Positions 17,134-50,589 of a DNA stretch of 64,000 nucleotides are shown one piece after another (positions within the stretch are counted from its first letter, which is position 1; the number at the start of each line of letters is the position of its first letter). The notes under the pieces are model-generated. The model did no database searches. It saw only the letters and a list, made by a program, of their open reading frames with translations, and had not been told where the DNA came from. The stretch is from Acidimicrobiia bacterium. Lineage in GTDB: Bacteria > Actinomycetota > Acidimicrobiia > Spongiisociales > ZC4RG35. Location of the stretch: NCBI GenBank assembly GCA_965215185.1, contig OZ244034.1, positions 1,874,244-1,938,243 of the forward strand. Direction: 5' to 3'. A program made the position numbers and the translations under genes.

Positions 17134-17416
17134 CCAAATCTGAGAACCGGGGATAATCCACAATCGCGAAAAGAACCCCCGAAAGGCTTGATTAGACCCA
17201 CCCAGCCGGTCCATCCTGTAAGCGGCCGGGCGGAAACCGGGCGTTTCGTCGAGCGTCACCTATAGGGAAGGCGGGATGACACCTAAAATCGCTCGCCCGC
17301 TCGGCCGCCAACGCCCCGATCGTGATCGTGATCGTGGGAGGCTTCAACAAGGATTGGGAAGTTAGACTTTGACGCATAAGGCTGAAAAGGAGCAACAACA
17401 CATAGACCTTGAAGCC

Positions 17417-18067
17417 ATGCAGCGGGAGATGTACCTGCTCCCCGAAGCAGCCCGCCTGCTTCGCATAAATACCACCACCCTGAAAAGATGGCTGGAAGGA
17501 GACGAGCGGCTCCCGCCCGTGATTCGTCCCCAAGCCACAGGATCCGACGCGGTGACCTGGGGAGAGTTTGTGGAAGCAGGTTTTCTGCGGGAATATCGTA
17601 GGTCCTTGAGCCTCCAGAGGATACGTCCCGCTATTGCGAAACTACGGGAAAAATTTGATGTGCCTTATCCCTTGGCGCATTACAAGCCCTTTATCGGACC
17701 AGGGCGCCATTTGACACTGGAGGCGCAACAGGAGGCACAAGTACCCCCAGATCTGTTCATCGTCTGGGAGATAGCAACAGGACAGTTGGCGCTCGCTGAT
17801 TCAGCCTTGGGCTACATCGAGAAAGTCGACTTTGCTGCAGAAGGCAGGCGTTGGGCAGAGCGTATTCATCCAGCGGGACGGGAATCCCCGGTAGTTATCG
17901 ATCCCGATTACTCGTTCGGAGCGCCAACCATCCGGGGCATCAAGACCTACATCATCACCGAACTCGTGGAAGCGGGTGAATCTCTGGAATTCGTAGCAGA
18001 GGGCTACTCGCTTTCGGTGGCTGAAATAGAAGCCGCGGTCGCTTATGAAGGGAAAGCCGCTGCCTAA
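17417..18067 (+). CDS. DUF433-domain protein with N-terminal HTH (putative antitoxin-like partner)
   Basis: C-terminal DPDYSFGAPTIRGIKTYIITELVEAGESLEFVAEGYSLSVAEIEAAVAY is DUF433-like. An HTH-like stretch (EAARLLRINTTTLKRWL). Low GC. Start could be the TTG at 17369. Confidence 0.55.
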   Translation: MQREMYLLPEAARLLRINTTTLKRWLEGDERLPPVIRPQATGSDAVTWGEFVEAGFLREYRRSLSLQRIRPAIAKLREKFDVPYPLAHYKPFIGPGRHLTLEAQQEAQVPPDLFIVWEIATGQLALADSALGYIEKVDFAAEGRRWAERIHPAGRESPVVIDPDYSFGAPTIRGIKTYIITELVEAGESLEFVAEGYSLSVAEIEAAVAYEGKAAA

Positions 18068-18095
18068 GAGAAAGCCGTCCACGGTCCGCTTCTAT

Positions 18096-18509
18096 ATGGA
18101 TGCTGACGTACTCGGTCTCGCCAAGGTCATTTCCAAAATCCGGCCTGATGTCACGTACCCGGGCGATCCGGGCGGGGAGATCAGAAAGCGGGTACGACCA
18201 CCCTGCCCGATCACCGATACTGAAACCACGGACCTCATATGGATCCCACAAGTCGCCCAGCGAGACTGGACCATCATCACCCGAGACCGGAATATTTCAC
18301 GAAAACCAGCGGAGCGCGATACCGTGATCGCTTACAACGCTAAGCTTTTTGTCTTTATTAAGCCCATCAATAAGAACTTTGATCTGTGGTCTCAACTGGA
18401 AGTCCTGATGACTCGATGGCGCGACATCGAACGACTCGGCGAAGAATCCGGGCCATTTATCTATAACGTCCATCGCACCACCGTCAATAGGGTCTGGCCA
18501 GCGGTTTAG
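18096..18509 (+). CDS. DUF5615 / PIN-like predicted nuclease (putative toxin partner of DUF433)
   Basis: MDADVLGLAKVI... start typical of DUF5615. Immediately downstream of the DUF433 gene. Low GC. Confidence 0.5.
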   Translation: MDADVLGLAKVISKIRPDVTYPGDPGGEIRKRVRPPCPITDTETTDLIWIPQVAQRDWTIITRDRNISRKPAERDTVIAYNAKLFVFIKPINKNFDLWSQLEVLMTRWRDIERLGEESGPFIYNVHRTTVNRVWPAV

Positions 18510-20359: not shown

Positions 20360-21397
20360 CTATTCCGCCTCGGTCTCTGCGGTTTCGGCCTGGTCGGGCT
20401 CCCCGGTCCCCTCTTGCCCTCCTCCTTCACCTGGCGGCTCTTCGCCGACGATCAAGCCGCACTCCTGCAGAGTCTCATCGGGGTCGGCCCCTCCGAAGCG
20501 GATCCGCTCGAAGGCCACCACCGAGGCTATTTCCTCTGCGGTGTTGCTGGTGCCGAAGGCGGACATGAAGCCGCCTCCACCCACAGGTTTGGCCAGATCG
20601 CCATAGGTATCGATTCCCGCGTCCAGAAAACCCCCGGTGGCCAGAGTCACCCACTCTATGTGGTCCGAGCAACTGGAGAATGTGGATAGCACGGTGGCGA
20701 GCGCCGGCCCCACTCCCCCTTCGCCGTTGGCCCCATGACATCCCGCACAGGTCTCGAAAATCGCTTCCCCCACCACCAGAAATTCACCCGCCGGGTCTTC
20801 CGCCCGACCGGTGAATTCGCTGCCGTCGCAGTTGACCACCGTGGCATTGAGCCGATCGACCGCCAACTCCACACCTCCATCAACACAACCCGCCCGCGCC
20901 GAGTTCCCCGCCAGATACAGCAAACCGATAGTAGGTATCACCAGGAATAGGGCGGCGAGCCAACGAGGCAGACTGGATGAGGTTCTCTCGGTCAGGTGAG
21001 CGGTCGGCACCGACACCACCACCGGGAAAGAAACCGCTTCTTTGAGGGTGACCTCCGACGGCGTCGGCGGTGGGGCGGCCACGATGGGGACGGAGGGAAC
21101 AGGGGCAGCGGTGGGGATCGCCGGGGTAGGCGCCGTGGGAATCGCAACAGGCGGGGGGGTGGCAGGCGGGGTAGGCGCCATCGCCGCAGTTGCGGTGGGG
21201 GCGGCCGCAGTTGGCGCGGCGGGGGTGGGCGCAGAGGCCGGAGCGGAGGCTGCTGGAGCAGATCCGCCACCTGCCCAAGCCGCCAGAATCTCCTCGACGG
21301 GGACCCCGCTTGCGGCCGACCGCGCTTCGGCCGAGCGCTGGACTAAAACCTCCGGGGCGCCCATGGCTTCAGCCGCTCTGGCCAGATTTTCACTCAT
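20360..21397 (-). CDS. membrane-anchored monohaem cytochrome c with N-terminal cytoplasmic module and Ala/Pro-rich linker
   Basis: CAGCH haem motif. One TM (LPRWLAALFLVIPTIGLLYLAG). N-terminus MSENLARAAEAMGAPEVLVQRSAEARSAASGVPVEEILAAWAG is shared with the two neighbouring subunits. Confidence 0.7.
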   Translation of the reverse strand: MSENLARAAEAMGAPEVLVQRSAEARSAASGVPVEEILAAWAGGGSAPAASAPASAPTPAAPTAAAPTATAAMAPTPPATPPPVAIPTAPTPAIPTAAPVPSVPIVAAPPPTPSEVTLKEAVSFPVVVSVPTAHLTERTSSSLPRWLAALFLVIPTIGLLYLAGNSARAGCVDGGVELAVDRLNATVVNCDGSEFTGRAEDPAGEFLVVGEAIFETCAGCHGANGEGGVGPALATVLSTFSSCSDHIEWVTLATGGFLDAGIDTYGDLAKPVGGGGFMSAFGTSNTAEEIASVVAFERIRFGGADPDETLQECGLIVGEEPPGEGGGQEGTGEPDQAETAETEAE

Positions 21398-22220
21398 CGG
21401 ATCCGCCGTCGGTCAAGACTCGGGACTCCACCAGGTAAGCCACCAAAGAATCCATCGAACTGCCCCCGTAGGACAAATGCCCACCCTCACCCGAGAGCAC
21501 CGCTTGGATGTCGTCGGGCGCCATCCGGTTCCCTACATTGGCCAAGTCCGGGCCATAACGCTGCCGCCCGATCACTTGGTTGGAGTCGGACAGCGTCACC
21601 CCGCCCTGTCCCGCCAAGGCGGCCAATTGGGCGTCGGCAATTATGGGGCGGACCATTTGGGTATGGCAGGCCGCACACCCCTCCGCCAGATACTCGCCCT
21701 GACCCTGCAGAGCCATCTCACTATAGGGGATCTCGGAGTGGAGCACTCCCCTACCCAAACCCGAGATCGTGGGGACCACCAAGGTGATGGCCAGGCACAG
21801 GACCAACAGGGCGGCTGCGCCGAAGAAATACCGCAAAGGCCGATCCACCCGACCCGTCAAGATCGGGGGCGGTCCCTCGACCGTCGGGGCATAGACCACT
21901 ACCGGTCTCTGAGGAGGAGAGGATACCGTAGCCGCGACGGCGGCAGGAGCGGCTGCCGGGGCCTCAGAGGGTGCGGGAGTGGCAGCAGGTACGGGCGCAG
22001 GGCGTGCAACGGCAGGCTCGAGTTCGGCGCGGGCAGGCGACGGTGCGGGGGCGGCGGCAGGCGGTGCTTCAGGGGCGGGTTCCGGTCCCTGTCCCGCCCA
22101 AGCTCTCAGGATTTCTTCGACAGAGACGCCACTGGCGCTGGCCCGGGCTTCTGCGGAGCGTTGCACCAACTCGGTGGGAGCTCCCACGACCTGCGCGGCG
22201 GCCTCCAACAGCTCGCTCAT
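21390..22220 (-). CDS. membrane-anchored monohaem cytochrome c, paralogous N-terminal module
   Basis: CAACH haem motif. One TM. N-terminus MSELLEAAAQVVGAPTELVQRSAEARASASGVSVEEILRAWAG. ATGA overlap with the upstream membrane protein gene. Confidence 0.7.
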   Translation of the reverse strand: MSELLEAAAQVVGAPTELVQRSAEARASASGVSVEEILRAWAGQGPEPAPEAPPAAAPAPSPARAELEPAVARPAPVPAATPAPSEAPAAAPAAVAATVSSPPQRPVVVYAPTVEGPPPILTGRVDRPLRYFFGAAALLVLCLAITLVVPTISGLGRGVLHSEIPYSEMALQGQGEYLAEGCAACHTQMVRPIIADAQLAALAGQGGVTLSDSNQVIGRQRYGPDLANVGNRMAPDDIQAVLSGEGGHLSYGGSSMDSLVAYLVESRVLTDGGSDE

Positions 22221-23623
22221 TCTTCTTCCTCTTCCCGCATCTGAGATTCCGACGGTTCCGATCTGCCGGAATCGGCAGGTTCCTGGTCAGCGGCCAAGGC
22301 GAGAATCTCCTGGGCGGCCGGTCGTCCAGAGGTGAAGGTCCTCAACACCGCCAAACAGAAGGAGAGCTGACCTACCAGCGTCAGCAGACCCGACAGTATG
22401 GACAATCCCACCAGCAACGAGGCCATACCCACCAGACTCTCCCAACCATCCCCGGTGGGGCTGACACCGGTATAGGACCCTCCCGTCCAACCGTAACCCG
22501 ACATCAGTCCGGCGCCCACCAACAGGGCGGAAGTCAAGCCCACCCCCCAGAAGGTGAAGCGCAGATGAAGCTGGGCAAGCCCCACTCCGGCCATCTTCCG
22601 GCCAGTGATCGACGGAAGCGCCTGATACGACCAAGCCGCCACCAGCAGCCCGCCGGCTCCGAACAGGGCAGCGTAGAGCACACCGTCCCAAAACGGCGTG
22701 AGACCCACCACCGCCGCCGCGGAACGGACGGCGCCGAAGCTGGTCAAAGCCGCGGTCATCAAAGCGAAAAAGACACCCGCCAAGGCGGCCGCCACCACGG
22801 GACGCGTTCTTCGCTCCGCCCAGAACTGATCGGCGGTCAAGGCGAAGTTGGCGGCGTTGGCCAAAGCAGACACGGGAAGGGCGAGGGTCATCAGGAATGC
22901 CACCGCTTCCAACCAACCGGGAACCGGGCCGAAAACCAAGGGGGCGACTCCCGACCATGCCGACGCGAAAGCCAGCGACCAGAAACCCACTCTGGCCAAC
23001 TGCCGGCTGGCGAGAGGGTTTCCCGTCTCCTTCACCAAGGCGTAGTAGGCAAGCCCGATTCCCATTCCCACCACCCACAGGTTGGCGAGTCCAAACAGAG
23101 CGACCGACTCGGATAGGGCTCCACCCATCGCCGAGGACGCGGGAAGCGCCCCCACCAGATACAGCAACGGAAGCCACACCACCCCACCCATGGCATACCA
23201 CAAAGAAACATAGATATTGGGTTCTTGCCGATGCCGGACCGTAGAGATGGTGACCAACATCGGCGTCAGCAGGGTCAGGAACAACGGAAGGGCGACCCAC
23301 CAGGGAAGAGAGAAAGGACCCGTCCCATCTCCCCAACCCAACAACACCACTACCGCGCCCACCACGGTCACCAGGGCCGTGGCCACTCCCCCCGCCAATG
23401 CCAATCCTTCGCCGCGCAGGCGGGCGCCGGTGAGCCTGGGCAGCAAATAGTAGATTCCACCGACCAGCGACAGGGTCAACCAGCCCATCACGGCCAGCAG
23501 CAGGGCGATCGGGCGGATGCGACCGTAGGAGAAGGGCCCGGTCAGCGTCCCCGGGAACCGCAGTTCCACCATCGCCGCCACCCACACGACCCCGGCCAGG
23601 GCCAAAAAGGCGGTGGAGATCAC
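22217..23623 (-). CDS. polytopic (about 12-TM) integral membrane protein, unknown function, first gene of the cytochrome c operon
   Basis: 468 aa, highly hydrophobic, acidic C-terminal tail. YYLLPRLTGARL motif faintly like haem-copper oxidase subunit I, but only 2 His in the whole protein. Confidence 0.55.
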   Translation of the reverse strand: MISTAFLALAGVVWVAAMVELRFPGTLTGPFSYGRIRPIALLLAVMGWLTLSLVGGIYYLLPRLTGARLRGEGLALAGGVATALVTVVGAVVVLLGWGDGTGPFSLPWWVALPLFLTLLTPMLVTISTVRHRQEPNIYVSLWYAMGGVVWLPLLYLVGALPASSAMGGALSESVALFGLANLWVVGMGIGLAYYALVKETGNPLASRQLARVGFWSLAFASAWSGVAPLVFGPVPGWLEAVAFLMTLALPVSALANAANFALTADQFWAERRTRPVVAAALAGVFFALMTAALTSFGAVRSAAAVVGLTPFWDGVLYAALFGAGGLLVAAWSYQALPSITGRKMAGVGLAQLHLRFTFWGVGLTSALLVGAGLMSGYGWTGGSYTGVSPTGDGWESLVGMASLLVGLSILSGLLTLVGQLSFCLAVLRTFTSGRPAAQEILALAADQEPADSGRSEPSESQMREEEEE

Positions 23624-23938
23624 GATGTGCCATTTGGCAGCGGTATCAGAACCTAAGGTGTCCGACCACCCAGCGTAAGGCGCGACTCGCTTTTGCGGAT
23701 GTCCGACTTGATTATTCTTTGTCGTATTCAGAGCGCTACCCCCGGTGGCTCCGGAAATGAAAGGTTAGCCATGCTCGCCGCTCCAAAAGATAGCAAGAAA
23801 GAAACCCCACCGGGCGCAAGCGGCGCCGAGGGGCGTCAGGGCGGCCTTGGGATGAAAAAGGGTGCTAAGACTTTGTTTGAAGCACGTTCCGGTGTAAAAA
23901 TAGAAGTGCTTCGACCCCGGAAGGCCATCTGGTAAGAG

Positions 23939-24568
23939 ATGCACCGCCTCGCTTCTATAAGCTACCGAACAAGAATTCTCGTCGGTTGGTCGTCGCTATT
24001 GCTGGGAACAGGCCTCCTGGCGGTCGCCGTGCTGTGGATCCACTACTCGAAGCTGCCGCAGACCGAGATTGTCAACGGAGTGTCGACGGCGGTGGTGGTT
24101 GACTACTTCAACTGGATACCCCGAGGCTGGTTCTGGAAAAGCCTCGGTTATCTGGCCGCCCTGAGCGCCTCCCAGATGATGTTGGTGGGAGCGGCCTTCC
24201 TCTGGGTGCTTAACCAAAAGATGACCTGGGCGAGAGCGGCGTTTGCCGCCTTTTTGATCTGGATCGAGCTGGTGATGGTGTTCGGGATCGTTCCATCCGA
24301 GTGGCTGAACCTCTCTCAGACCGACCTGGACTGGTCGGGACAGCGGATCGCGTTACGGATCCCTCCGGCCTTGATGCTGGGCAACGAGGTCTCGATTAGT
24401 TGGGCGGCCATCAAAGACTCCATTTCAGGCGCCTACAACGTGGGAACGCTGGCCGCCGCCGGCGTCTTTGCCTACCTGCTCCAGCAGGTCTACAAGCCGC
24501 CCAAGAAGCAGGCCGCCAAGGTCAAAGTGTCACCCTATGGGCGGCCGCTGGTGAAGGGAGATCGTTGA
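23939..24568 (+). CDS. 4-TM membrane protein of unknown function, first gene of the bc-type operon
   Basis: 209 aa with four hydrophobic helices. Stop lies 1 bp before the ferredoxin start. Confidence 0.5.
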   Translation: MHRLASISYRTRILVGWSSLLLGTGLLAVAVLWIHYSKLPQTEIVNGVSTAVVVDYFNWIPRGWFWKSLGYLAALSASQMMLVGAAFLWVLNQKMTWARAAFAAFLIWIELVMVFGIVPSEWLNLSQTDLDWSGQRIALRIPPALMLGNEVSISWAAIKDSISGAYNVGTLAAAGVFAYLLQQVYKPPKKQAAKVKVSPYGRPLVKGDR

Positions 24569-24569
24569 G

Positions 24570-25019
24570 ATGCCCCGCGGTGTTGTGGACGAGACCCCGC
24601 CCTTTCGCGACGATTACCAGCTCACCCTGGTCGACAACAACTTCTATAACGGAAAGATCCGTCCCAAACAGTTTCTCCACATCGATCAGTCCGAATGCAT
24701 CCTTTGCGAGGGCTGTGTGGACATCTGCCCGTGGAAATGCATCTTTTATCTCTCCATGGAGGCCATCGACGAAGCGGTCAATGTCGACGATCCCCGCGAG
24801 GACCTCACCAACTATGGTTTCTTCGTTGTCGACGAGAACGAGTGCACCCGTTGCGCCCTGTGCATCGACCGCTGTCCCACCGGCGTCATCTCACTCGGCA
24901 AATTCGAAGGTTCTCTGGCCGCCCAGGCTGAAGAAATGGGGCTCAACTCGTCGCCCTGGGAGGTGGATACCGGCCAGAGGGACTTCAAACATGGCTATAC
25001 CTATGGAATGCGCTGGTAA
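24570..25019 (+). CDS. 2[4Fe-4S] dicluster ferredoxin-domain protein
   Basis: CILCEGCVDICP and CTRCALCIDRCP motifs. 149 aa. Confidence 0.75.
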   Translation: MPRGVVDETPPFRDDYQLTLVDNNFYNGKIRPKQFLHIDQSECILCEGCVDICPWKCIFYLSMEAIDEAVNVDDPREDLTNYGFFVVDENECTRCALCIDRCPTGVISLGKFEGSLAAQAEEMGLNSSPWEVDTGQRDFKHGYTYGMRW

Positions 25020-25029
25020 GGAGTGAAGC

Positions 25030-25818
25030 GTGAGTAGACAAAACGGCAAACAGGGCCTTTTGACCAAAGCCCGTACCCATGCGACCGGTTTGATGGGACG
25101 GGTCTGGTCCGGCCAGTTCATGGACTCGGTTCTGCGCCCCGGCTCCCCCTTCAAGAAGGGATACACCGACACTCCTCGTAACCGCTCCTATGTGATCATG
25201 AACAACGTGCTGTATCACCTCCATCCGGTGAAGGTGAAACGACACGGTGTGAAGCTCTCCTACACCCTGTGCCTGGGGGGGATGAGCTTTTTCCTGTTCA
25301 TTCTCCTGACCATCACCGGCATTTTCCTCATGTTCTATTACGCCCCCACCGCCGAGCGGGCCTACATAGATGTGCAGGCGCTGTCCACCGACATCGCGTT
25401 CGGCTCCCTGATGAGGAACATGCACCGATGGGGCGCCCATCTGATGGTGCTGACCGTGTTCCTCCACATGTCGAGAGTGTTTTACCACGGGGCTTACAAG
25501 CCGCCCCGCGAGTTCAACTGGATAGTGGGAGTCATCCTGTTGCTGTTGACCCTCCTCCTCTCCTTTACCGGGTATCTGCTTCCCTGGGACCAGTTGGCGC
25601 TGTGGGCCGTGACGGTGGGCAGCAACATGGCCGGCTTCGTTCCTGTCATAGGCGCGCAGGTGAAATTTGCCCTTTTGGGCGGAGTGGAGGTAACCGCGGG
25701 AACGCTTTTGCGATGGTATGTGCTCCACGTTCTCTTCCTGCCCTTCATCATCGTGATCTTCCTGGCAGTCCATTTCTGGAGAGTCCGCAAAGACGGCGGC
25801 ATCTCCGGCCCTCTCTAA
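25030..25818 (+). CDS. cytochrome b (N-terminal half, cytochrome b6-like) of a Rieske/cytochrome b complex
   Basis: Four TM helices. Bis-His haem ligands (HRWGAHLMV...H and HVLFLPF...H). 262 aa. Confidence 0.85.
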
Positions 25819-25837: not shown

Positions 25838-26785
25838 GTGCCACAAATCCCTGAAGAACTGCTGAGACGCTCCGCCGAGGCGAAGGCCAAAGCGCTGGGT
25901 TTGCCGGTGGAACAGGTGCTGGCCGAGATGCGAGGGGAAGCTCCGGTCACCGAGATAGCCGCCGAGTCGGTGTCGGTGCCCGCTCCCCGCTTCGTTCCCA
26001 CCACAGCCCGCATCCCTGTTTCCGAGATGCCCCCCGACCCGCAGCCGCCCGACCCCGCCTCGGCGCCGCCGCCCGCCATCACGGCAGTGGACGAGGTGGA
26101 AGAAGCCCAAGCCGAAGTAGCCGAGACTCCCGCCGCTGAAGCCCCCACCGCTTCGGAACCGGGCGCGCCGGCCGGGGAGAACAGCGCCGGGAACGGACGG
26201 CTGGCGGCGGTCGTGTCGGTTCGACCCTCGGTGCCGCCCACCGACCTGCCCAAAGGCGTACGCCATCAACGACTGCTCACGGTGGTCAAAGCCCGAGCCA
26301 TCCAACAGGTAAAGGCCGATCCCACCGACAAGGTGAACACCTGGCCGCATCTGATGATCACCGAGTTCACCGCCCTCTTGGCGATGACCGCCTTTCTCCT
26401 GGTGCTCTCGGTCATCCTTCAGGCGCCTCTCCTGGAGTCGGCCAACTTCAACTCCACCCCCAACCCGTCCAAGGCGCCCTGGTACTTCTTGGGCCTGCAA
26501 GAGATGCTCTCCTACTTCGATCCGCAGATCGCCGGGGTGACCGTGCCGACGGTGATCGGGTTAGTGGGATTCATGATGATTCCCTACATAGACCGCAATC
26601 CCTCCACCCGCCCGTCGGACCGCAAACTGGCCATCATGCTTTACACCATCTTCCTGGCCGGGTCGGCGACCCTCACCATCCTGGGGGTGCTGTTCCGTGG
26701 CCCCGGGTTCAACTTCGTCTACCCATGGGTTGATGGGGTGTTCTTCGATGACCTGAAAGACTGGGTTGATTTTGGTGGGCACTGA
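25838..26785 (+). CDS. cytochrome b C-terminal half / subunit-IV-like protein with N-terminal cytoplasmic module and long Pro/Ala-rich linker
   Basis: PNPSKAPWYFLGLQEML, the PEWY-type motif of cytochrome b/PetD. N-terminus MPQIPEELLRRSAEAKAKALGLPVEQVLAEMRG matches the N-termini of the two cytochromes c. Confidence 0.75.
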   Translation: MPQIPEELLRRSAEAKAKALGLPVEQVLAEMRGEAPVTEIAAESVSVPAPRFVPTTARIPVSEMPPDPQPPDPASAPPPAITAVDEVEEAQAEVAETPAAEAPTASEPGAPAGENSAGNGRLAAVVSVRPSVPPTDLPKGVRHQRLLTVVKARAIQQVKADPTDKVNTWPHLMITEFTALLAMTAFLLVLSVILQAPLLESANFNSTPNPSKAPWYFLGLQEMLSYFDPQIAGVTVPTVIGLVGFMMIPYIDRNPSTRPSDRKLAIMLYTIFLAGSATLTILGVLFRGPGFNFVYPWVDGVFFDDLKDWVDFGGH

Positions 26786-26813: not shown

Positions 26814-27677
26814 ATGGGCGGCGTCGAACTGATCATCATCGGTGTGGCGGCGGTCGCCATCGCCGCCGCGGTGGGTGCCTTCACCATCGCCTTCCGCCGC
26901 GCCGAACCCGACCCCGCTTCTCTGTGGCCCAAGAAGCTGGAGCGTGGCGCCCGGAAAGCGGACCGTTCCACCTCCACCATGGAACTGGTGCTTACCACCG
27001 AGGCGGATGCTGTGGACGAGGACGAGGAAGTCGATGCACCAGAATACGAAGCCCCGGCCCCGGTGGCAGAGCGCTTGGCGCCCATCACCGAATCCCAGGT
27101 AATCGTTGAGGCGTCTGCAGAGGAGGTGGGGGTAACCCGCCGACAGTTCTTCAACCGGTCCCTGGCCGCCATGTCGGTGGCCTGGTTCGGGATCATGGGA
27201 ATCGAGATCCTGGCCTTCCTGTGGCCCAAGATCACCGGAGGATTCGGAAGCGACGTCGACGCCGGGAGCGCCGCCGACCTGGTTCCCGAGATGACCGACA
27301 CCGCGGGCCTGGTAACTCCGGCTTTCATCCCCGACGCCCGCGCCTACGTGGTACCGGCGCCCGTTGAGATGAGTCAGCAATTCGCTGGCAGAGATGTGGC
27401 GGCCGGAGGGCTGATGGCGCTCTACCAGCGGTGCGTCCACCTGGGATGCCGGGTGCCCTGGTGCGACGACTCCCAGGGCTTCGAATGTCCCTGCCACGGC
27501 TCCAAATACAACTCGGTCGGAGAGTATTTTGCTGGCCCCGCACCCCGAAATCTGGACCGTTTCTCGGTCCACGTCACCGACGATGGGCGTCTGATAATCA
27601 GGACCGGGGTTATAGTGGAAACCCCCCGGGCTAACGCTCAGTCTGTGTCATATCCGCAAGGCCCCTCCTGCATATAG
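26814..27677 (+). CDS. Rieske [2Fe-2S] iron-sulfur protein, Tat-dependent, with extra N-terminal TM helix
   Basis: Twin-arginine [13 protein letters not shown]. Rieske boxes CVHLGC and CPCHGS. 287 aa. Confidence 0.85.
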
Positions 27678-27687
27678 GGGAGATATT

Positions 27688-29394
27688 GTGGATTCCTCGC
27701 TAGTAATAACCCTGGTGGTGGTGGGAGCCGTAATCTGGCTCTCCTTTTTGGGAGTGGCCGCCCTGCGCTCCCGACGGCGGGAAGGAATCCCTCCCAACCA
27801 GGCGCCGGGCGTCACCGACGACGCTTTGGAAACCCGCCGCCTGGAACGTATCCAACAGGCCGCCGTCCTGCTGTCGGCCTTCCTGGCGGTGGGGCTGGCT
27901 GTTTACTACCTGAGCGAAACCGATCGACAGGAAAGCTTCGTGGACCAGTTCCACGAGGAGTCGGTGGAACGCGGCGCCGAACTGGTCGGGCCCGACGAGG
28001 CCGACTGCTGGAGTTGTCACGGCCCCAGCGGAGTGGGAGGTGTGGCCAGCTATGTGGAGAAGCGCACCGGGGTGAACGTGTCATGGTCGGCGCCTTCACT
28101 CGATGACATCTTCTTGCGTTATGACCGTGACATAATCACCTATTGGGTGACCTATGGGCGAGGCAACTCCCCCATGCCGCCGTGGGGCACGGTGGGAGGC
28201 GGTCCCATGAACGAACAACAGGTTTTCGACATCGTCAACTACCTGGAAAGTATCCAACTCTCTCAGCAGAACATCCTCCGCAAGGCCGACACCATCGTGG
28301 TGGGTCAGCTGAGTGTTCTGGAGAATGCCGACCAGGCCCTGGAAAAGGCCATTATCGAACAGCGCCAACTGATCGCCGACATCGAGGCGGCGCCCCGGTA
28401 CGCCGAGATGATGGCCAATCTGGTAGCGCTCGCCCGCCAGAGCCTGAATGGCTCGGACCGGGGGATCGATCGCGACGGTGACAACTTGTCGGACGTTTCA
28501 GAAGTGACGATCTCCCAACTGACCGCTGCCGCAGCGGCCCTGTTCGACATCAATCAGATCGAGGCTCTGACATTCGATCCGCAGAATCCCGCCACTGACG
28601 GCCGTCCCGACGCAGATGTAGCCGACCATGCCATCTCCCATCTGCAGGAGGTGGTGCCCCAGGTGCCGATTCTCGAGTTGCGCGTGCAGTCCATCAGAAC
28701 GGCGCTGCTGGCCGAGGACGAGGAGGACTCCGACGGTGACCAACTCTCCGATCGGGCGGAAAGAGTGCTAACCGCCGAACTGGCCATCGCCAGGACGGCG
28801 CTTCGCCCTAATACCTTGACAGTGGTGAACCTCGACCCGGAGCGTGCTTCTTCGGGTGGGGGAGTCAACGATGATCAAACCGCCGCCACCGCCGTCTCGG
28901 GTATGGAGGCCGCCGCCGTAAACCTGGCGGTACGAACCGAAAACGGCGAGCGGCTGCTCGGTCCGGCCCGGGCGGGACTGGAAGAGTTACTGGCCGCCCA
29001 GGAGCAGCGGAAATGGGAGATAGACCTGGAAGGCGTGGCCGCGGCCGCCTTCTTTGGAAATTCGGAGCAGGCCTCCCGGGCGGTCGGTGTGTTCACCGGG
29101 TATTGCGCGCGCTGCCACACTTCCGGCTGGTCGGCGGGGACCCCCTACGCTGCTCAACCCGGCTCGGGGGGATTCGGGCCGGCGCTTTGGAAGGGCCGAC
29201 CGCATGTTCAGTTCCTAAACAAGGAGAAACTGCGCTCCTTCCTGTTGGTGGGAGCGGTTGCGGACCGGCCTTACGGAGTGAACGGATTCGGAAATGGCCA
29301 GATGCCCGCCTTCGGGACGGTGCTCTCATCCGACGACCTGGACCTGCTGGTGGAGTACTTGTGGGCAGGGAATCTTAACGGCAAGGGAACCTAA
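27688..29394 (+). CDS. dihaem cytochrome c (QcrC-like), N-terminally membrane-anchored, with a about 300-aa inserted domain
   Basis: CWSCHG and CARCHT haem motifs at about residue 110 and 480. Two N-terminal TMs. Insert carries DRDGDNLSDVSE and DSDGDQLSDRAE loops. Confidence 0.75.
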   Translation: MDSSLVITLVVVGAVIWLSFLGVAALRSRRREGIPPNQAPGVTDDALETRRLERIQQAAVLLSAFLAVGLAVYYLSETDRQESFVDQFHEESVERGAELVGPDEADCWSCHGPSGVGGVASYVEKRTGVNVSWSAPSLDDIFLRYDRDIITYWVTYGRGNSPMPPWGTVGGGPMNEQQVFDIVNYLESIQLSQQNILRKADTIVVGQLSVLENADQALEKAIIEQRQLIADIEAAPRYAEMMANLVALARQSLNGSDRGIDRDGDNLSDVSEVTISQLTAAAAALFDINQIEALTFDPQNPATDGRPDADVADHAISHLQEVVPQVPILELRVQSIRTALLAEDEEDSDGDQLSDRAERVLTAELAIARTALRPNTLTVVNLDPERASSGGGVNDDQTAATAVSGMEAAAVNLAVRTENGERLLGPARAGLEELLAAQEQRKWEIDLEGVAAAAFFGNSEQASRAVGVFTGYCARCHTSGWSAGTPYAAQPGSGGFGPALWKGRPHVQFLNKEKLRSFLLVGAVADRPYGVNGFGNGQMPAFGTVLSSDDLDLLVEYLWAGNLNGKGT

Positions 29395-29397
29395 GTA

Positions 29398-29757
29398 ATG
29401 CGTGAACTGTTTCGCTCGCTGCTATCGGCCAACCTGTTCGTCACCGGGATCATCCTGCTGGTGACGGCGATCTTGGTCTTCTACGGCACCGTCTACCTTC
29501 TCAACTACACCAACCTAGGAAAGAAGCTGGCGTTCCTGGTGACCGGGGCCGGGATCTCGGCCTGGATGACCATAGGCAGCATGCTCTTCGTCCTCTACGC
29601 TCCCCGCGGCCCCCGCCCGGCCAACATCGAGGGACTCAACGCCTTCGAAGTGCGGATCATCCCCATCACTTTCACAGTGGTCTCGGCCGTTCTTTTCATC
29701 GGATTCCTGGTAGCCCTCCACCAATACGAAGAAGCCCGAGAAAAAGCCGACCTTTAA
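29398..29757 (+). CDS. small 3-TM membrane protein (putative accessory subunit)
   Basis: 119 aa. Start 4 bp after the cytochrome c stop. Confidence 0.45.
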   Translation: MRELFRSLLSANLFVTGIILLVTAILVFYGTVYLLNYTNLGKKLAFLVTGAGISAWMTIGSMLFVLYAPRGPRPANIEGLNAFEVRIIPITFTVVSAVLFIGFLVALHQYEEAREKADL

Positions 29758-49341: not shown

Positions 49342-50589
49342 TTGGAGATGATGAGCGGCGCTGACGTGTTGGTGGTGGGAGGAGGCCCCGCCGGAGCGGC
49401 CGCCGCCTACTGGCTGGGCAGGGACGGCCATGCCGTGACCCTGGTGGAGCGCAAATCCTTTCCCCGCGACAAGACCTGCGGAGATGGTCTGACCCCCCGC
49501 GCCATCTATCAACTCGCCGAGATGGGTTTCGACTTCTCGGTGCCCGGATTCCATCGCATAACCGGACTGCGCTCCTACGCCGGGGACAAGGTGATGTTGG
49601 AGATGCCCTGGCCCGACCATTCCCGCTTTCCCGACTGGGGGGGAGTGATCCGCCGCCGAGACCTTGACCAGCAGGTGGCGGATCTGGCCCGAAGCCAAGG
49701 AGTGGCCGTCCGGGAGAAAACGGAAGCCCGACCCCTGGTCCAGGACGGGTCCCTGGAAGGCGTCGAATTGAGAGCCAATGGCTCGGTGGAGACGGTGCGG
49801 CCGAAGGTGGTGATCGTGGCCGACGGCGCTCTGAACCGCTTCGGGCGACATTTGGGGGTGATCCGTCGCAAGGACTACCCCTTGGGTTTGGCCGCCCGCG
49901 GCTACTACCAGAGCCCCCGGTCGACCGACTCCTTTTTGGAAAGCCAGTTGGATATCCGCGACAGTACGGGGGCCACCATGCCTGGCTATGGCTGGGTGTT
50001 CCCGCTGGGAGATGGCACAGTCAATGTGGGAGTGGGGCTGCTTTCCACCTTCAAGCGGTGGAAGCAGGCCAACACCACCAAGATGATGGCGGACTGGGCC
50101 GACGCTGCTCCCGACTACTGGGGTCTTTCCGAGGACACCCGGCTCACCGATCCGGTGGGCGGCGCCCTGCAGATGTCGTTTTCCCGCTCTCCTCTGGCAG
50201 GGCCGAACTGGCTGGTGATCGGCGATGCGGCGGCGGCGATCAACCCATGGAACGGTGAAGGCATCGCCTACGCATATGAGACGGGGCGAATCGCCGCCGG
50301 GTTGGTGGGTGAGGCAATGGCGGGTAACAAGCCCGATGTTCTGCTGCGATATCCCCAACTCCTGGACGGGGAGTACGGCCTCTATTACCGGACGGCCCGG
50401 ATCTTCGTGAAACTCATCGGCCGCCCGGCCGTGATGCGAACTCTGGCCCATACCGGCCTGCGCAACCGCCCCCTTATGGAGTGGACCCTGAAAGTGATGT
50501 CCAATCTGCTGGACGACGACGAACGCGGCATTGGCGAACAGGTCTACCGGGCACTGCAAGGACTCGCGAGAGGTATCCCCGTTGCGTAA
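49342..50589 (+). CDS. geranylgeranyl reductase-family FAD-dependent oxidoreductase
   Basis: VVGGGPAGAAAA dinucleotide motif. CGDG motif. 415 aa. Confidence 0.75.
   Translation: MEMMSGADVLVVGGGPAGAAAAYWLGRDGHAVTLVERKSFPRDKTCGDGLTPRAIYQLAEMGFDFSVPGFHRITGLRSYAGDKVMLEMPWPDHSRFPDWGGVIRRRDLDQQVADLARSQGVAVREKTEARPLVQDGSLEGVELRANGSVETVRPKVVIVADGALNRFGRHLGVIRRKDYPLGLAARGYYQSPRSTDSFLESQLDIRDSTGATMPGYGWVFPLGDGTVNVGVGLLSTFKRWKQANTTKMMADWADAAPDYWGLSEDTRLTDPVGGALQMSFSRSPLAGPNWLVIGDAAAAINPWNGEGIAYAYETGRIAAGLVGEAMAGNKPDVLLRYPQLLDGEYGLYYRTARIFVKLIGRPAVMRTLAHTGLRNRPLMEWTLKVMSNLLDDDERGIGEQVYRALQGLARGIPVA

Follow-up and report, generated by a model that had tools for sequence, protein, structure and literature searches.

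Within a 64,000-nucleotide stretch of the genome of an Acidimicrobiia bacterium (GenBank assembly GCA_965215185.1, contig OZ244034.1, positions 1,874,244 to 1,938,243 of the forward strand; hereafter the window, with position 1 at its first letter) lies an operon that begins with a gene for a large hydrophobic membrane protein and continues with two cytochrome c genes. A sequence-only reading of the window had seen in the first protein hints of subunit I of the haem-copper oxidases (HCOs), in particular of CcoN from cbb3-type oxidases, lacking metal ligands. It had offered three interpretations: a degenerate oxidase-like scaffold, an NrfD-like quinone-site subunit or an unrelated transporter. 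The open reading frame (ORF) is where that reading placed it, on the minus strand, which had gone unstated. The operon contains the following features.

22217 to 23623, minus strand: CcoN-like protein, 468 aa, with GTG as its sole canonical start; a homologue of C-family HCO subunit I without cofactor ligands
23624 to 23656, minus strand: in-frame upstream extension LGSDTAAKWHI, carrying the N-terminal motif of the family
21390 to 22220, minus strand: CcoO-like monohaem cytochrome c, 276 aa, haem motif CAACH; Pfam FixO at 46.9 bits (cut-off 29.6)
20360 to 21397, minus strand: second membrane-anchored monohaem cytochrome c (c345), 345 aa, CAGCH; Pfam Cytochrom_C and a weak Cytochrome_CBB3 match

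The CcoN-like protein and its cofactor sites

The CcoN-like protein scores 89.6 bits against Pfam COX1 (PF00115; cut-off 34.8) and matches solved CcoN chains in phmmer at E 7e-18. Aligning the family profile to a canonical CcoN profile with HHalign gave a probability of 100 per cent (E 3.1e-59) over 444 columns. With 45 homologues as input, AlphaFold2 gave a model (pLDDT 91.8, pTM 0.90) with twelve long transmembrane (TM) helices and a C-terminal tail helix, in agreement with the earlier claim of a 12-TM protein, and the loop charges fit a topology with the N-terminus inside (five K+R cytoplasmic, one periplasmic). In Foldseek the top matches to this model are seven cbb3 CcoN chains (TM-score 0.84–0.86, E ~1e-18), and the bc1-cbb3 supercomplex structures 6xkw, 8smr and 9g83 are among the top matches. 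NorB and ba3 subunit I rank after CcoN (E ~1e-9; NorB TM-score 0.73–0.74), and all 50 PDB fold matches listed are HCO subunit I or NorB chains. Judged by profile and predicted fold, the protein is a genuine CcoN homologue with the HCO fold, and CcoN is its nearest relative. Neither NrfD/PsrC nor any transporter family turned up in Pfam, NCBIfam or the listed fold matches, and the two corresponding options of the earlier reading are not borne out.

With homology above threshold and a 12-TM fold, the protein belongs to the HCO superfamily as a subunit I. It falls short of the CcoN equivalog: against NCBIfam TIGR00780 it scores 106 bits, below the cut-off of 583.15. Nor does it qualify as NorB of cNOR or as qNOR, as the His ligands are absent and the fold matches to NorB are weaker than those to CcoN.

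We read the ligand columns from an alignment of the query and 117 homologues (118 sequences, the family below) to R. capsulatus CcoN, and an independent profile–profile alignment mapped the columns alike. All six His ligand columns and the column of the cross-linked Tyr are substituted in all 118 sequences. The first haem b His column is Ala in 105 of the 118 and the second is Tyr in 95 (Tyr317 in our protein). Where canonical CcoN has the CuB His that is cross-linked to Tyr, the family has Ala or Phe, and the Tyr itself is replaced by Ala, Ser or Gly in these unfused proteins. The other two CuB His columns carry Ala, Gly, Val or Leu in one case and Gln or Pro in the other (Gln228 in 90/118), and the proximal His of haem b3 has given way to Val or Ile. 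The replacements are mostly small or apolar. Among sixty-one metagenomic orthologues, none has a His at any of the seven ligand and Tyr sites, and whole proteins of the family contain between zero and eight His, with one member containing none.

Other residues associated with CcoN function are also gone. In the P. stutzeri structure 3MK7 we take E122 to be a Ca2+ ligand, E323 to hydrogen-bond the proximal His, and H243 and S240 to be proton-path residues. The family does not have this set: the H243 column is Gly and the S240 column Ala in 118/118, the E323 column is Leu, Ala or Val, and the E122 column is divided among Gly (42), Glu (39) and Gln (29). What the family does share with canonical CcoN lies outside the cofactor sites, namely Gly and Trp positions, an R.(K/Q)E loop, a YY pair and FW..F; the retained residues include R35, R63, R132, E134, W142, YY193/194, W215, W223 and W237. 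The cross-linked active-site Tyr of the O2-reducing A, B and C families is missing, and none of the 118 sequences has the six His that define a functional HCO (PMC3084760).

Several smaller details of the earlier description hold up. The protein ends in an acidic tail (...MREEEEE), contains exactly two His (H131 and H353), and its stop codon overlaps the CcoO-like start in ATGA. The CcoO-like gene in turn has an 8-nt overlap (ATGAGTGA) with the c345 gene, so that all three are coupled in translation. The segment likened to the YY..PRLTG region of CcoN, GGIYYLLPRLTGARL, spans residues 55–69; the canonical CcoN profile reads Y.VPRL at the aligned position, and P62, R63, L64 and T65 are invariant across the family. 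The two His fare differently, being present in only 27/118 (H131) and 44/118 (H353) sequences, so neither is conserved.

The N-terminus of the protein is less certain. Upstream of the GTG the reading frame is still open, and the conserved N-terminal motif of the family (D..A..H..VS, here SDTAAKWHIV) sits in this upstream part. In a contig of 98.9 per cent identity (L081) the gene starts at a TTG eleven codons earlier. The same codon reads TTA here (23656–23654, minus strand), which leaves the GTG as the sole canonical start and excludes the motif. Because the motif lies upstream and the start used in the near-identical contig is altered, the true N-terminus in this strain is uncertain, and the protein is probably at least eleven residues longer than the ORF. 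This extension would bring one extra His, which is cytoplasmic, partly conserved and off the ligand positions.

Cytochrome c partners and the divergent operon

The first cytochrome c is a CcoO homologue, a relationship that the sequence-only reading had missed, and a FixO-type monohaem CcoO thus directly follows the CcoN-like gene, as in a cbb3 complex. It consists of an N-terminal cytoplasmic module, a Pro/Ala-rich linker, a TM helix and a shortened FixO-type haem domain. This domain aligns to residues 43–122 of P. stutzeri CcoO (3mk7_B), after which ~45 aa are deleted, and the FixO profile is matched in its first half only. The deletion takes in the segment that bears the canonical axial Met. 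CxxCH is kept in 68/70 orthologues, and His247 (in GGHLSY) is conserved among them.

Cytochrome c345 takes the position of CcoP and has the same N-terminal module as the CcoO-like protein. It is not a dihaem CcoP: it has one CxxCH, and its TIGR00782 match (E 0.035, 13.4 bits) is far from the cut-off of 180. The CxxCH is kept in 65/68 c345 orthologues, in which the module and an MP. motif are also conserved.

Divergently transcribed from these three genes is a second operon, which encodes a Rieske/cytochrome b6 complex.

23657 to 23938: divergent intergenic region of both operons, with conserved non-coding blocks
23939 to 24568, plus strand: TM209, a 4-TM protein and the first gene of the divergent operon; system-specific, of no known family
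24570 to 25019, plus strand: 2x[4Fe-4S] ferredoxin-like subunit (Fdx149), 149 aa; Pfam Fer4 families, two CxxCxxCxxxCP motifs
25030 to 25818, plus strand: cytochrome b6-type subunit; Pfam Cytochrome_B at 163.9 bits, NCBIfam ExtP at 305 bits (cut-off 290)
25838 to 26785, plus strand: subunit IV (PetD-like); Pfam Cytochrom_B_C, with a long N-terminal extension that starts with the shared module
26814 to 27677, plus strand: Rieske [2Fe-2S] protein; Pfam Rieske, CVH...CPCH motif
27688 to 29394, plus strand: membrane-anchored dihaem cytochrome c (c568), 568 aa; Pfam Cytochrome_CBB3 and Cytochrom_C, two CxxCH
29398 to 29757, plus strand: small membrane ORF closing the operon, 119 aa; a gene of the same size has the same position on the near-identical contig

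The cofactor motifs of cytochrome b6, the Rieske protein, the ferredoxin-like subunit and c568 are all intact, and c568 is dihaem in 57/63 orthologues. In cytochrome b6 all four His haem ligands are present, as is the CLGG cysteine usual in b6 proteins that bind haem ci. Together with the ferredoxin-like subunit, for which no signal peptide or TM helix is evident, this cysteine hints at electron exchange between the n-side of b6 and a bound Fe-S protein. The ferredoxin-like subunit is also the most conserved protein of the cluster, with 63–95 per cent identity across loci and a ratio of non-synonymous to synonymous substitution rates (dN/dS) of 0.03–0.04. TM209 has no sequence match in Pfam, NCBIfam or the PDB, and Foldseek returned nothing below E 0.5 for its AlphaFold2 model, which is of moderate confidence (pLDDT 72). 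All 845 TM209 homologues are named hypothetical. TM209 has an invariant motif, VPSEWL..QTDL.WS, and is a specific marker of the cluster.

Across Acidimicrobiia and related lineages from the environment, the two operons occur together with great regularity. In a sample of eighty genome loci, in which CcoN-like identity ranges from 39 to 84 per cent, the CcoN-like gene adjoins the divergent operon wherever the contig is long enough, with TM209 present at 76/80 and the ferredoxin at 75/80; the remaining Rieske/b6 subunits are missing only at contig ends. The reverse also holds. Among metagenome contigs found with the ferredoxin as probe, a divergent CcoN-like gene is present at all 43 loci with at least 2.6 kb of upstream sequence. 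The sixty-one metagenomic orthologues mentioned above come from this search. This strict pairing with a divergent Rieske/b6/ferredoxin operon had likewise escaped the sequence-only reading.

The operons share one sequence feature of their proteins. A module of ~30 residues (..V.RSAEARA.A.G.PVEE.LA.WAGG), followed by a Pro/Ala-rich linker, opens the CcoO-like protein, c345 and subunit IV. Its motif occurs exactly three times in the window (22086–22220 and 21263–21397 on the minus strand, 25838–25942 on the plus strand), is conserved across ~65 loci and is the sole sequence feature linking subunits of both operons. The module has no Pfam match, and given the established topology of CcoO and PetD we place all three copies in the cytoplasm. 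The tail of the CcoN-like protein (GRPAAQEIL) was considered as a fourth copy and dropped: its spacing differs, it failed a regular-expression test and it is absent from the fused proteins described below. Synteny in both directions and the shared module lead us to infer that the CcoN-like proteins associate physically with the Rieske/b6 complex.

The intergenic region between the operons contains long blocks, among them TCTTGCTATCTTTTGGAGCGGC, AAGAATAA.CAA and CTATTTTTACAC, which are invariant over eleven loci whose proteins have diverged to ~77 per cent identity. These blocks are probably promoters or operators. The region as a whole (23657–23938) has no Rfam match and no consensus sigma-70 site, and contains a single weak inverted repeat.

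Looking beyond the unfused family, we searched 1.84 billion cluster representatives exhaustively with a profile and inspected the best 150 of the 1670 matches. Many of these are further ligand-less clusters, and canonical proteins with the ligand pattern HHYHHHH start only at ~205 bits and below. A few inspected clusters have partial ligand sets, and calls for these low-scoring clusters depend on alignment quality. In a rough distance tree (neighbour-joining on BLOSUM distances, midpoint rooted, no support values) most His-less sequences group apart from canonical ones.

Some of these relatives are natural fusions of the CcoN-like and CcoO-like proteins, 620–750 residues long and with exactly one CxxCH in 63/63 examined. 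Since such fusions exist, we take the CcoN-like and CcoO-like parts still to form one complex. The same divergent cluster surrounds these distant forms: in two fused representatives it includes a TM protein, ferredoxin, cytochrome b, subunit IV, Rieske protein and dihaem cytochrome c. The fused genes lie within this cluster as follows.

L082/L083, 8001 to 9944: fused CcoN-CcoO gene within a Rieske/b6/ferredoxin cluster
L086, 8001 to 10052: fused CcoN-CcoO gene within a Rieske/b6/ferredoxin cluster

In the fused clade the shared module is repeated in tandem, both in subunit IV and in the cytochrome c encoded downstream, and ORFs of 165–175 aa take the place of the 119-aa small ORF. The two clades do not agree at the former active-site columns, and at the Tyr column the fused proteins carry Trp or Phe; the residues that both clades conserve are chiefly Gly, Trp and Pro, together with other apolar or aromatic types. 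Fused-type clusters are followed by a geranylgeranyl-reductase (GGR)-like flavin adenine dinucleotide (FAD) protein, with a Rex-like regulator, a SAM-hydroxide-adenosyltransferase (SAM_HAT) and a glutaredoxin-like gene nearby. A remote His-poor CcoN-like gene (L085) adjoins nuo and multihaem cytochromes, and here too the operon is directly followed by a GGR-like protein. In our window a protein of the same kind is encoded 26 kb away (49342–50589, plus strand). One more remote relative lies on a sporulating-Firmicute-like contig (L084, 8001–16158; GCA_020725105.1) and has a partial or altered ligand pattern, YQYVHYH. Its gene is followed by those for a FixO-dihaem fusion, a cytochrome c, two cytochromes b (one of them with a fused Fer4 domain) and an FlpD/MvhD-like protein, and the cluster adjoins CtaA and CtaB.

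The CcoN-like gene is under ordinary purifying selection. Its pairwise dN/dS is 0.136–0.161 at dS 0.66–1.07, equal to that of the Rieske protein, TM209, c568 and an unrelated neighbour (a SAM-hydroxide-adenosyltransferase); the values for cytochrome b6 and the ferredoxin are 0.02–0.05. The family has thirty-four invariant columns. A CcoN-like relative is present in 189 species-level GTDB genomes, nearly all of them labelled as metagenome-assembled genomes (MAGs) of Acidimicrobiia. With its homology, residue loss, constraint (dN/dS 0.14) and spread over these genomes, the protein fits the general concept of a pseudoenzyme.

Two further features of the window lie outside these operons. Near its start, an ORF on the minus strand (1625–2887) resembles TnpB/IS605 OrfB and has a Cas12f1-like TNB domain, a remnant of a mobile element. 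At 17369–18509 (plus strand) a DUF433/helix-turn-helix protein precedes a PIN_10-domain protein in a toxin-antitoxin-like pair; at 17422–17778 the window's alignment with L081 is interrupted, which suggests a strain-specific indel.

Proposed role and alternatives

Of the three original interpretations, the degenerate oxidase-like scaffold is the one whose central idea survives, on the grounds of homology, fold and family-wide substitution of ligands; the likeness to an HCO without ligands stands, and the NrfD-like and transporter options fall. We propose, with a probability of about 60 per cent, that a catalytically dead CcoN has been kept as a scaffold for haem c and gives the Rieske/b6 complex a cytochrome c arm. 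As a pseudo-oxidase the protein would bind neither haem b nor copper, reduce neither O2 nor NO, and pump no protons. It would instead be retained as a membrane platform that positions two haem c domains at the outer face of the membrane. Together with its cytochromes it would most likely act as a fixed arm of the neighbouring menaquinol-oxidising complex and would be what is left of an ancestral bc-cbb3 supercomplex. The Rieske protein and the dihaem c568 would hand electrons to the haems c of this arm, from which they would go on to a separate, true terminal oxidase (aa3 or caa3) or another acceptor. The shared cytoplasmic module of ~30 residues may tether the two halves.

A number of points weigh against this proposal. 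Gene order is the ground for inferring a physical association with the Rieske/b6 complex, and the Rieske/b6 operon has a dihaem cytochrome c of its own, so that the need for an extra arm is not obvious. The canonical Met-ligand segment is missing from the CcoO-like domain, whose haem may differ in coordination and potential. With ligand columns that are mostly Ala, Gly or Ser in the unfused proteins, the CcoN-like protein could have internal cavities able to bind something, and the fairly conserved Tyr317 (95/118) and Gln228 (90/118) of the unfused family make unconventional ligation possible. No terminal oxidase gene was seen in the 64-kb window, where we scanned twenty further ORFs in addition to the annotated 21-kb neighbourhood. 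The downstream acceptor is therefore assumed, its one support being that caa3-type oxidases are reported for Acidimicrobiia in a MAG study.

A wider version of the proposal is possible, and we offer it only tentatively. The ten-gene cluster would represent an unrecognised class of respiratory supercomplex, with a dead cbb3 oxidase as its permanent arm, the cytoplasmic module as its tether and the emptied pockets perhaps reused for quinone or lipid, and the CcoN-like proteins, unfused forms, CcoN-CcoO fusions and other groups together, would be a large and ancient cofactor-less HCO clade filtered from every HCO survey.

The emptied interior suggests a first alternative, which we regard as unlikely. 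The twelve-helix shell may have been kept because its former haem and copper pockets, or the three HCO pores, now have something else to bind or conduct: menaquinol, at a quinol-oxidising site feeding the CcoO-like haem c directly, a lipid, or an ion or proton path. The ligand columns of the unfused proteins do hold residues smaller than His or Tyr (A40, A/F177, A/S/G221, A227, V/I315), AlphaFold2 still gives the CcoN-like arrangement of helices (TM-score 0.85), and the gene right after the fused-type clusters encodes a GGR-like FAD protein, though that it acts on quinones is a guess. However, no polar or ionisable residue of the former pockets is conserved across the unfused and fused clades. 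The Tyr column is filled by Trp or Phe in the fused clade, the canonical channel residues are now Gly and Ala, and nothing in Pfam, NCBIfam or the fold search resembles NrfD/PsrC or another quinone-site subunit.

The separateness of the two operons and their divergent transcription fit a different idea, in which the dead CcoN is only a folding or stability chaperone for the CcoO-like cytochrome, the CcoN-like unit acts alone, for example in electron entry or exit for periplasmic substrates, and adjacency reflects shared regulation with no complex between the two. Remote His-poor CcoN-like genes are indeed found in other settings, beside nuo and multihaem cytochromes (L085) or two cytochrome b genes (L084). 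Shared regulation does not readily account for co-location that is strict in both directions (76/80 and 43/43) and outlasts gene fusion and deep divergence, or for the same cytoplasmic module on subunits of both operons, and we consider this explanation improbable.

Tyr at the second haem b column and Gln at one CuB column, at the frequencies given above for the unfused family, might also mean that the protein is still a redox enzyme, an unusual reductase of O2, NO or another substrate with haems or metal on non-His ligands. Neither residue is kept in the fused clade, which has the same gene context, and many of the orthologues from metagenomes also lack them. Ala fills the opposing axial position, and Val or Ile stands where the catalytic haem would have its proximal ligand. 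The Ca2+ Glu is not conserved, and nor is the residue aligned with what we take, from the P. stutzeri structure, to be the haem-propionate Arg. One member of the family is entirely without His. We think a surviving catalytic role very unlikely.

The last two alternatives can be given almost no weight. Loss of all catalytic residues and the uncertain start codon of the present strain might suggest a decaying pseudogene or an annotation artefact, which is ruled out by the intact full-length ORF in 189 species genomes, dN/dS of ~0.14, the thirty-four invariant columns and the confident fold prediction. An NrfD-type quinone subunit or unrelated transporter has in its favour the general look of a polytopic hydrophobic protein, and against it family matches that are to COX1 and ccoN only and top structural matches that are all HCO subunit I.

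Related systems and implications

The closest known counterpart is the CcoN-CcoO-CcoP core of cbb3 oxidases (P. stutzeri 3MK7, R. capsulatus 6XKW). The CcoN-like system resembles it in the 12-TM subunit I fold (TM-score 0.85), in the gene order of CcoN, CcoO and a second cytochrome c, in translational coupling and in the FixO-type monohaem partner. It differs in that the CcoN-like protein lacks the six His, the cross-linked Tyr, H243, S240 and the Glu that bonds the proximal His, and has largely lost the Ca2+ Glu. The Met-ligand segment is absent from the CcoO-like domain, the third subunit has a single haem where CcoP has two, and each of the two cytochromes c is extended at its N-terminus by a long cytoplasmic stretch. 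Within the operon no ccoQ could be recognised, and none of ccoGHIS was seen among the neighbours examined.

In bc1-cbb3 supercomplexes (6XKW; P. aeruginosa 8SMR; alphaproteobacterial 9G83), as in our cluster, a Rieske/cytochrome b complex and a CcoN/CcoO unit are combined via membrane-anchored c cytochromes, though here the two are joined by synteny alone. This arrangement is likely to be the ancestral state of the present cluster. In those supercomplexes, however, cbb3 is a working terminal oxidase, whereas here the CcoN part has no redox centres and its partner, a split complex of b6 type, includes a 2x[4Fe-4S] subunit. The actinobacterial bcc-aa3 supercomplex (7QHO, 6ADQ) comes from the same phylum and is similar in that membrane-anchored c haems wire a Rieske/b complex to a partner of HCO fold with no soluble cytochrome c. 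Its HCO is an active A-family oxidase, its cytochrome b is unsplit, and it has no ferredoxin subunit or CcoO-like protein.

Loss of cofactors with retention of fold has been described in HCO complexes, in quinol oxidase subunit II without CuA and in qNOR without haem c (PMC11214002). In these cases accessory sites of electron entry were lost and the catalytic subunit stayed active, whereas here it is the catalytic subunit that has been emptied. The CcoN-like system is a mirror image of qNOR, which kept its active site and lost haem c; the CcoN-like system kept haem c and lost the active site. Divergent environmental families of HCO subunit I without the active-site Tyr are also known (eNOR, bNOR, sNOR, gNOR and nNOR); these still have haems and an active site that binds metal, in which gNOR has Asp in place of one His (PMC11214002), whereas the CcoN-like family has kept none of the ligands.

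We found no earlier description of cofactor-less CcoN-like proteins in the open-access literature, though such an absence is no proof. The HCO superfamily is among the best-studied enzyme families, and its accepted definition includes six invariant His. A published HCO classifier dropped sequences without the six conserved His (PMC3084760), and the His-less clade would be missing from HCO surveys because sequences of this kind were rejected. Automated annotation routinely takes these proteins for working oxidases: the NCBI and JGI pipelines name the CcoN-like proteins 'cbb3-type cytochrome c oxidase subunit I'. As the protein has the HCO fold and lacks both the six His and a CcoN-equivalog score, it should not be filed as a cbb3 oxidase.

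This matters for what is said of the host group. At least one MAG study credits Acidimicrobiia with cbb3 oxidases (PMC8357290). High-affinity microaerobic respiration inferred for this class, which is abundant in soil, marine and freshwater habitats, may thus be wrong, although the genes behind the MAG claims may differ from those described here. That the CcoN-like genes pair so strictly with a Rieske/b6 operon containing a cytoplasmic 2x[4Fe-4S] subunit suggests that Actinomycetota have a quinol-oxidising machine yet to be characterised. For the HCO superfamily, a large clade that is selected and taxonomically widespread and that keeps the fold without cofactors would be the first pseudo-enzyme branch, and a natural experiment on the roles of the HCO scaffold apart from catalysis.

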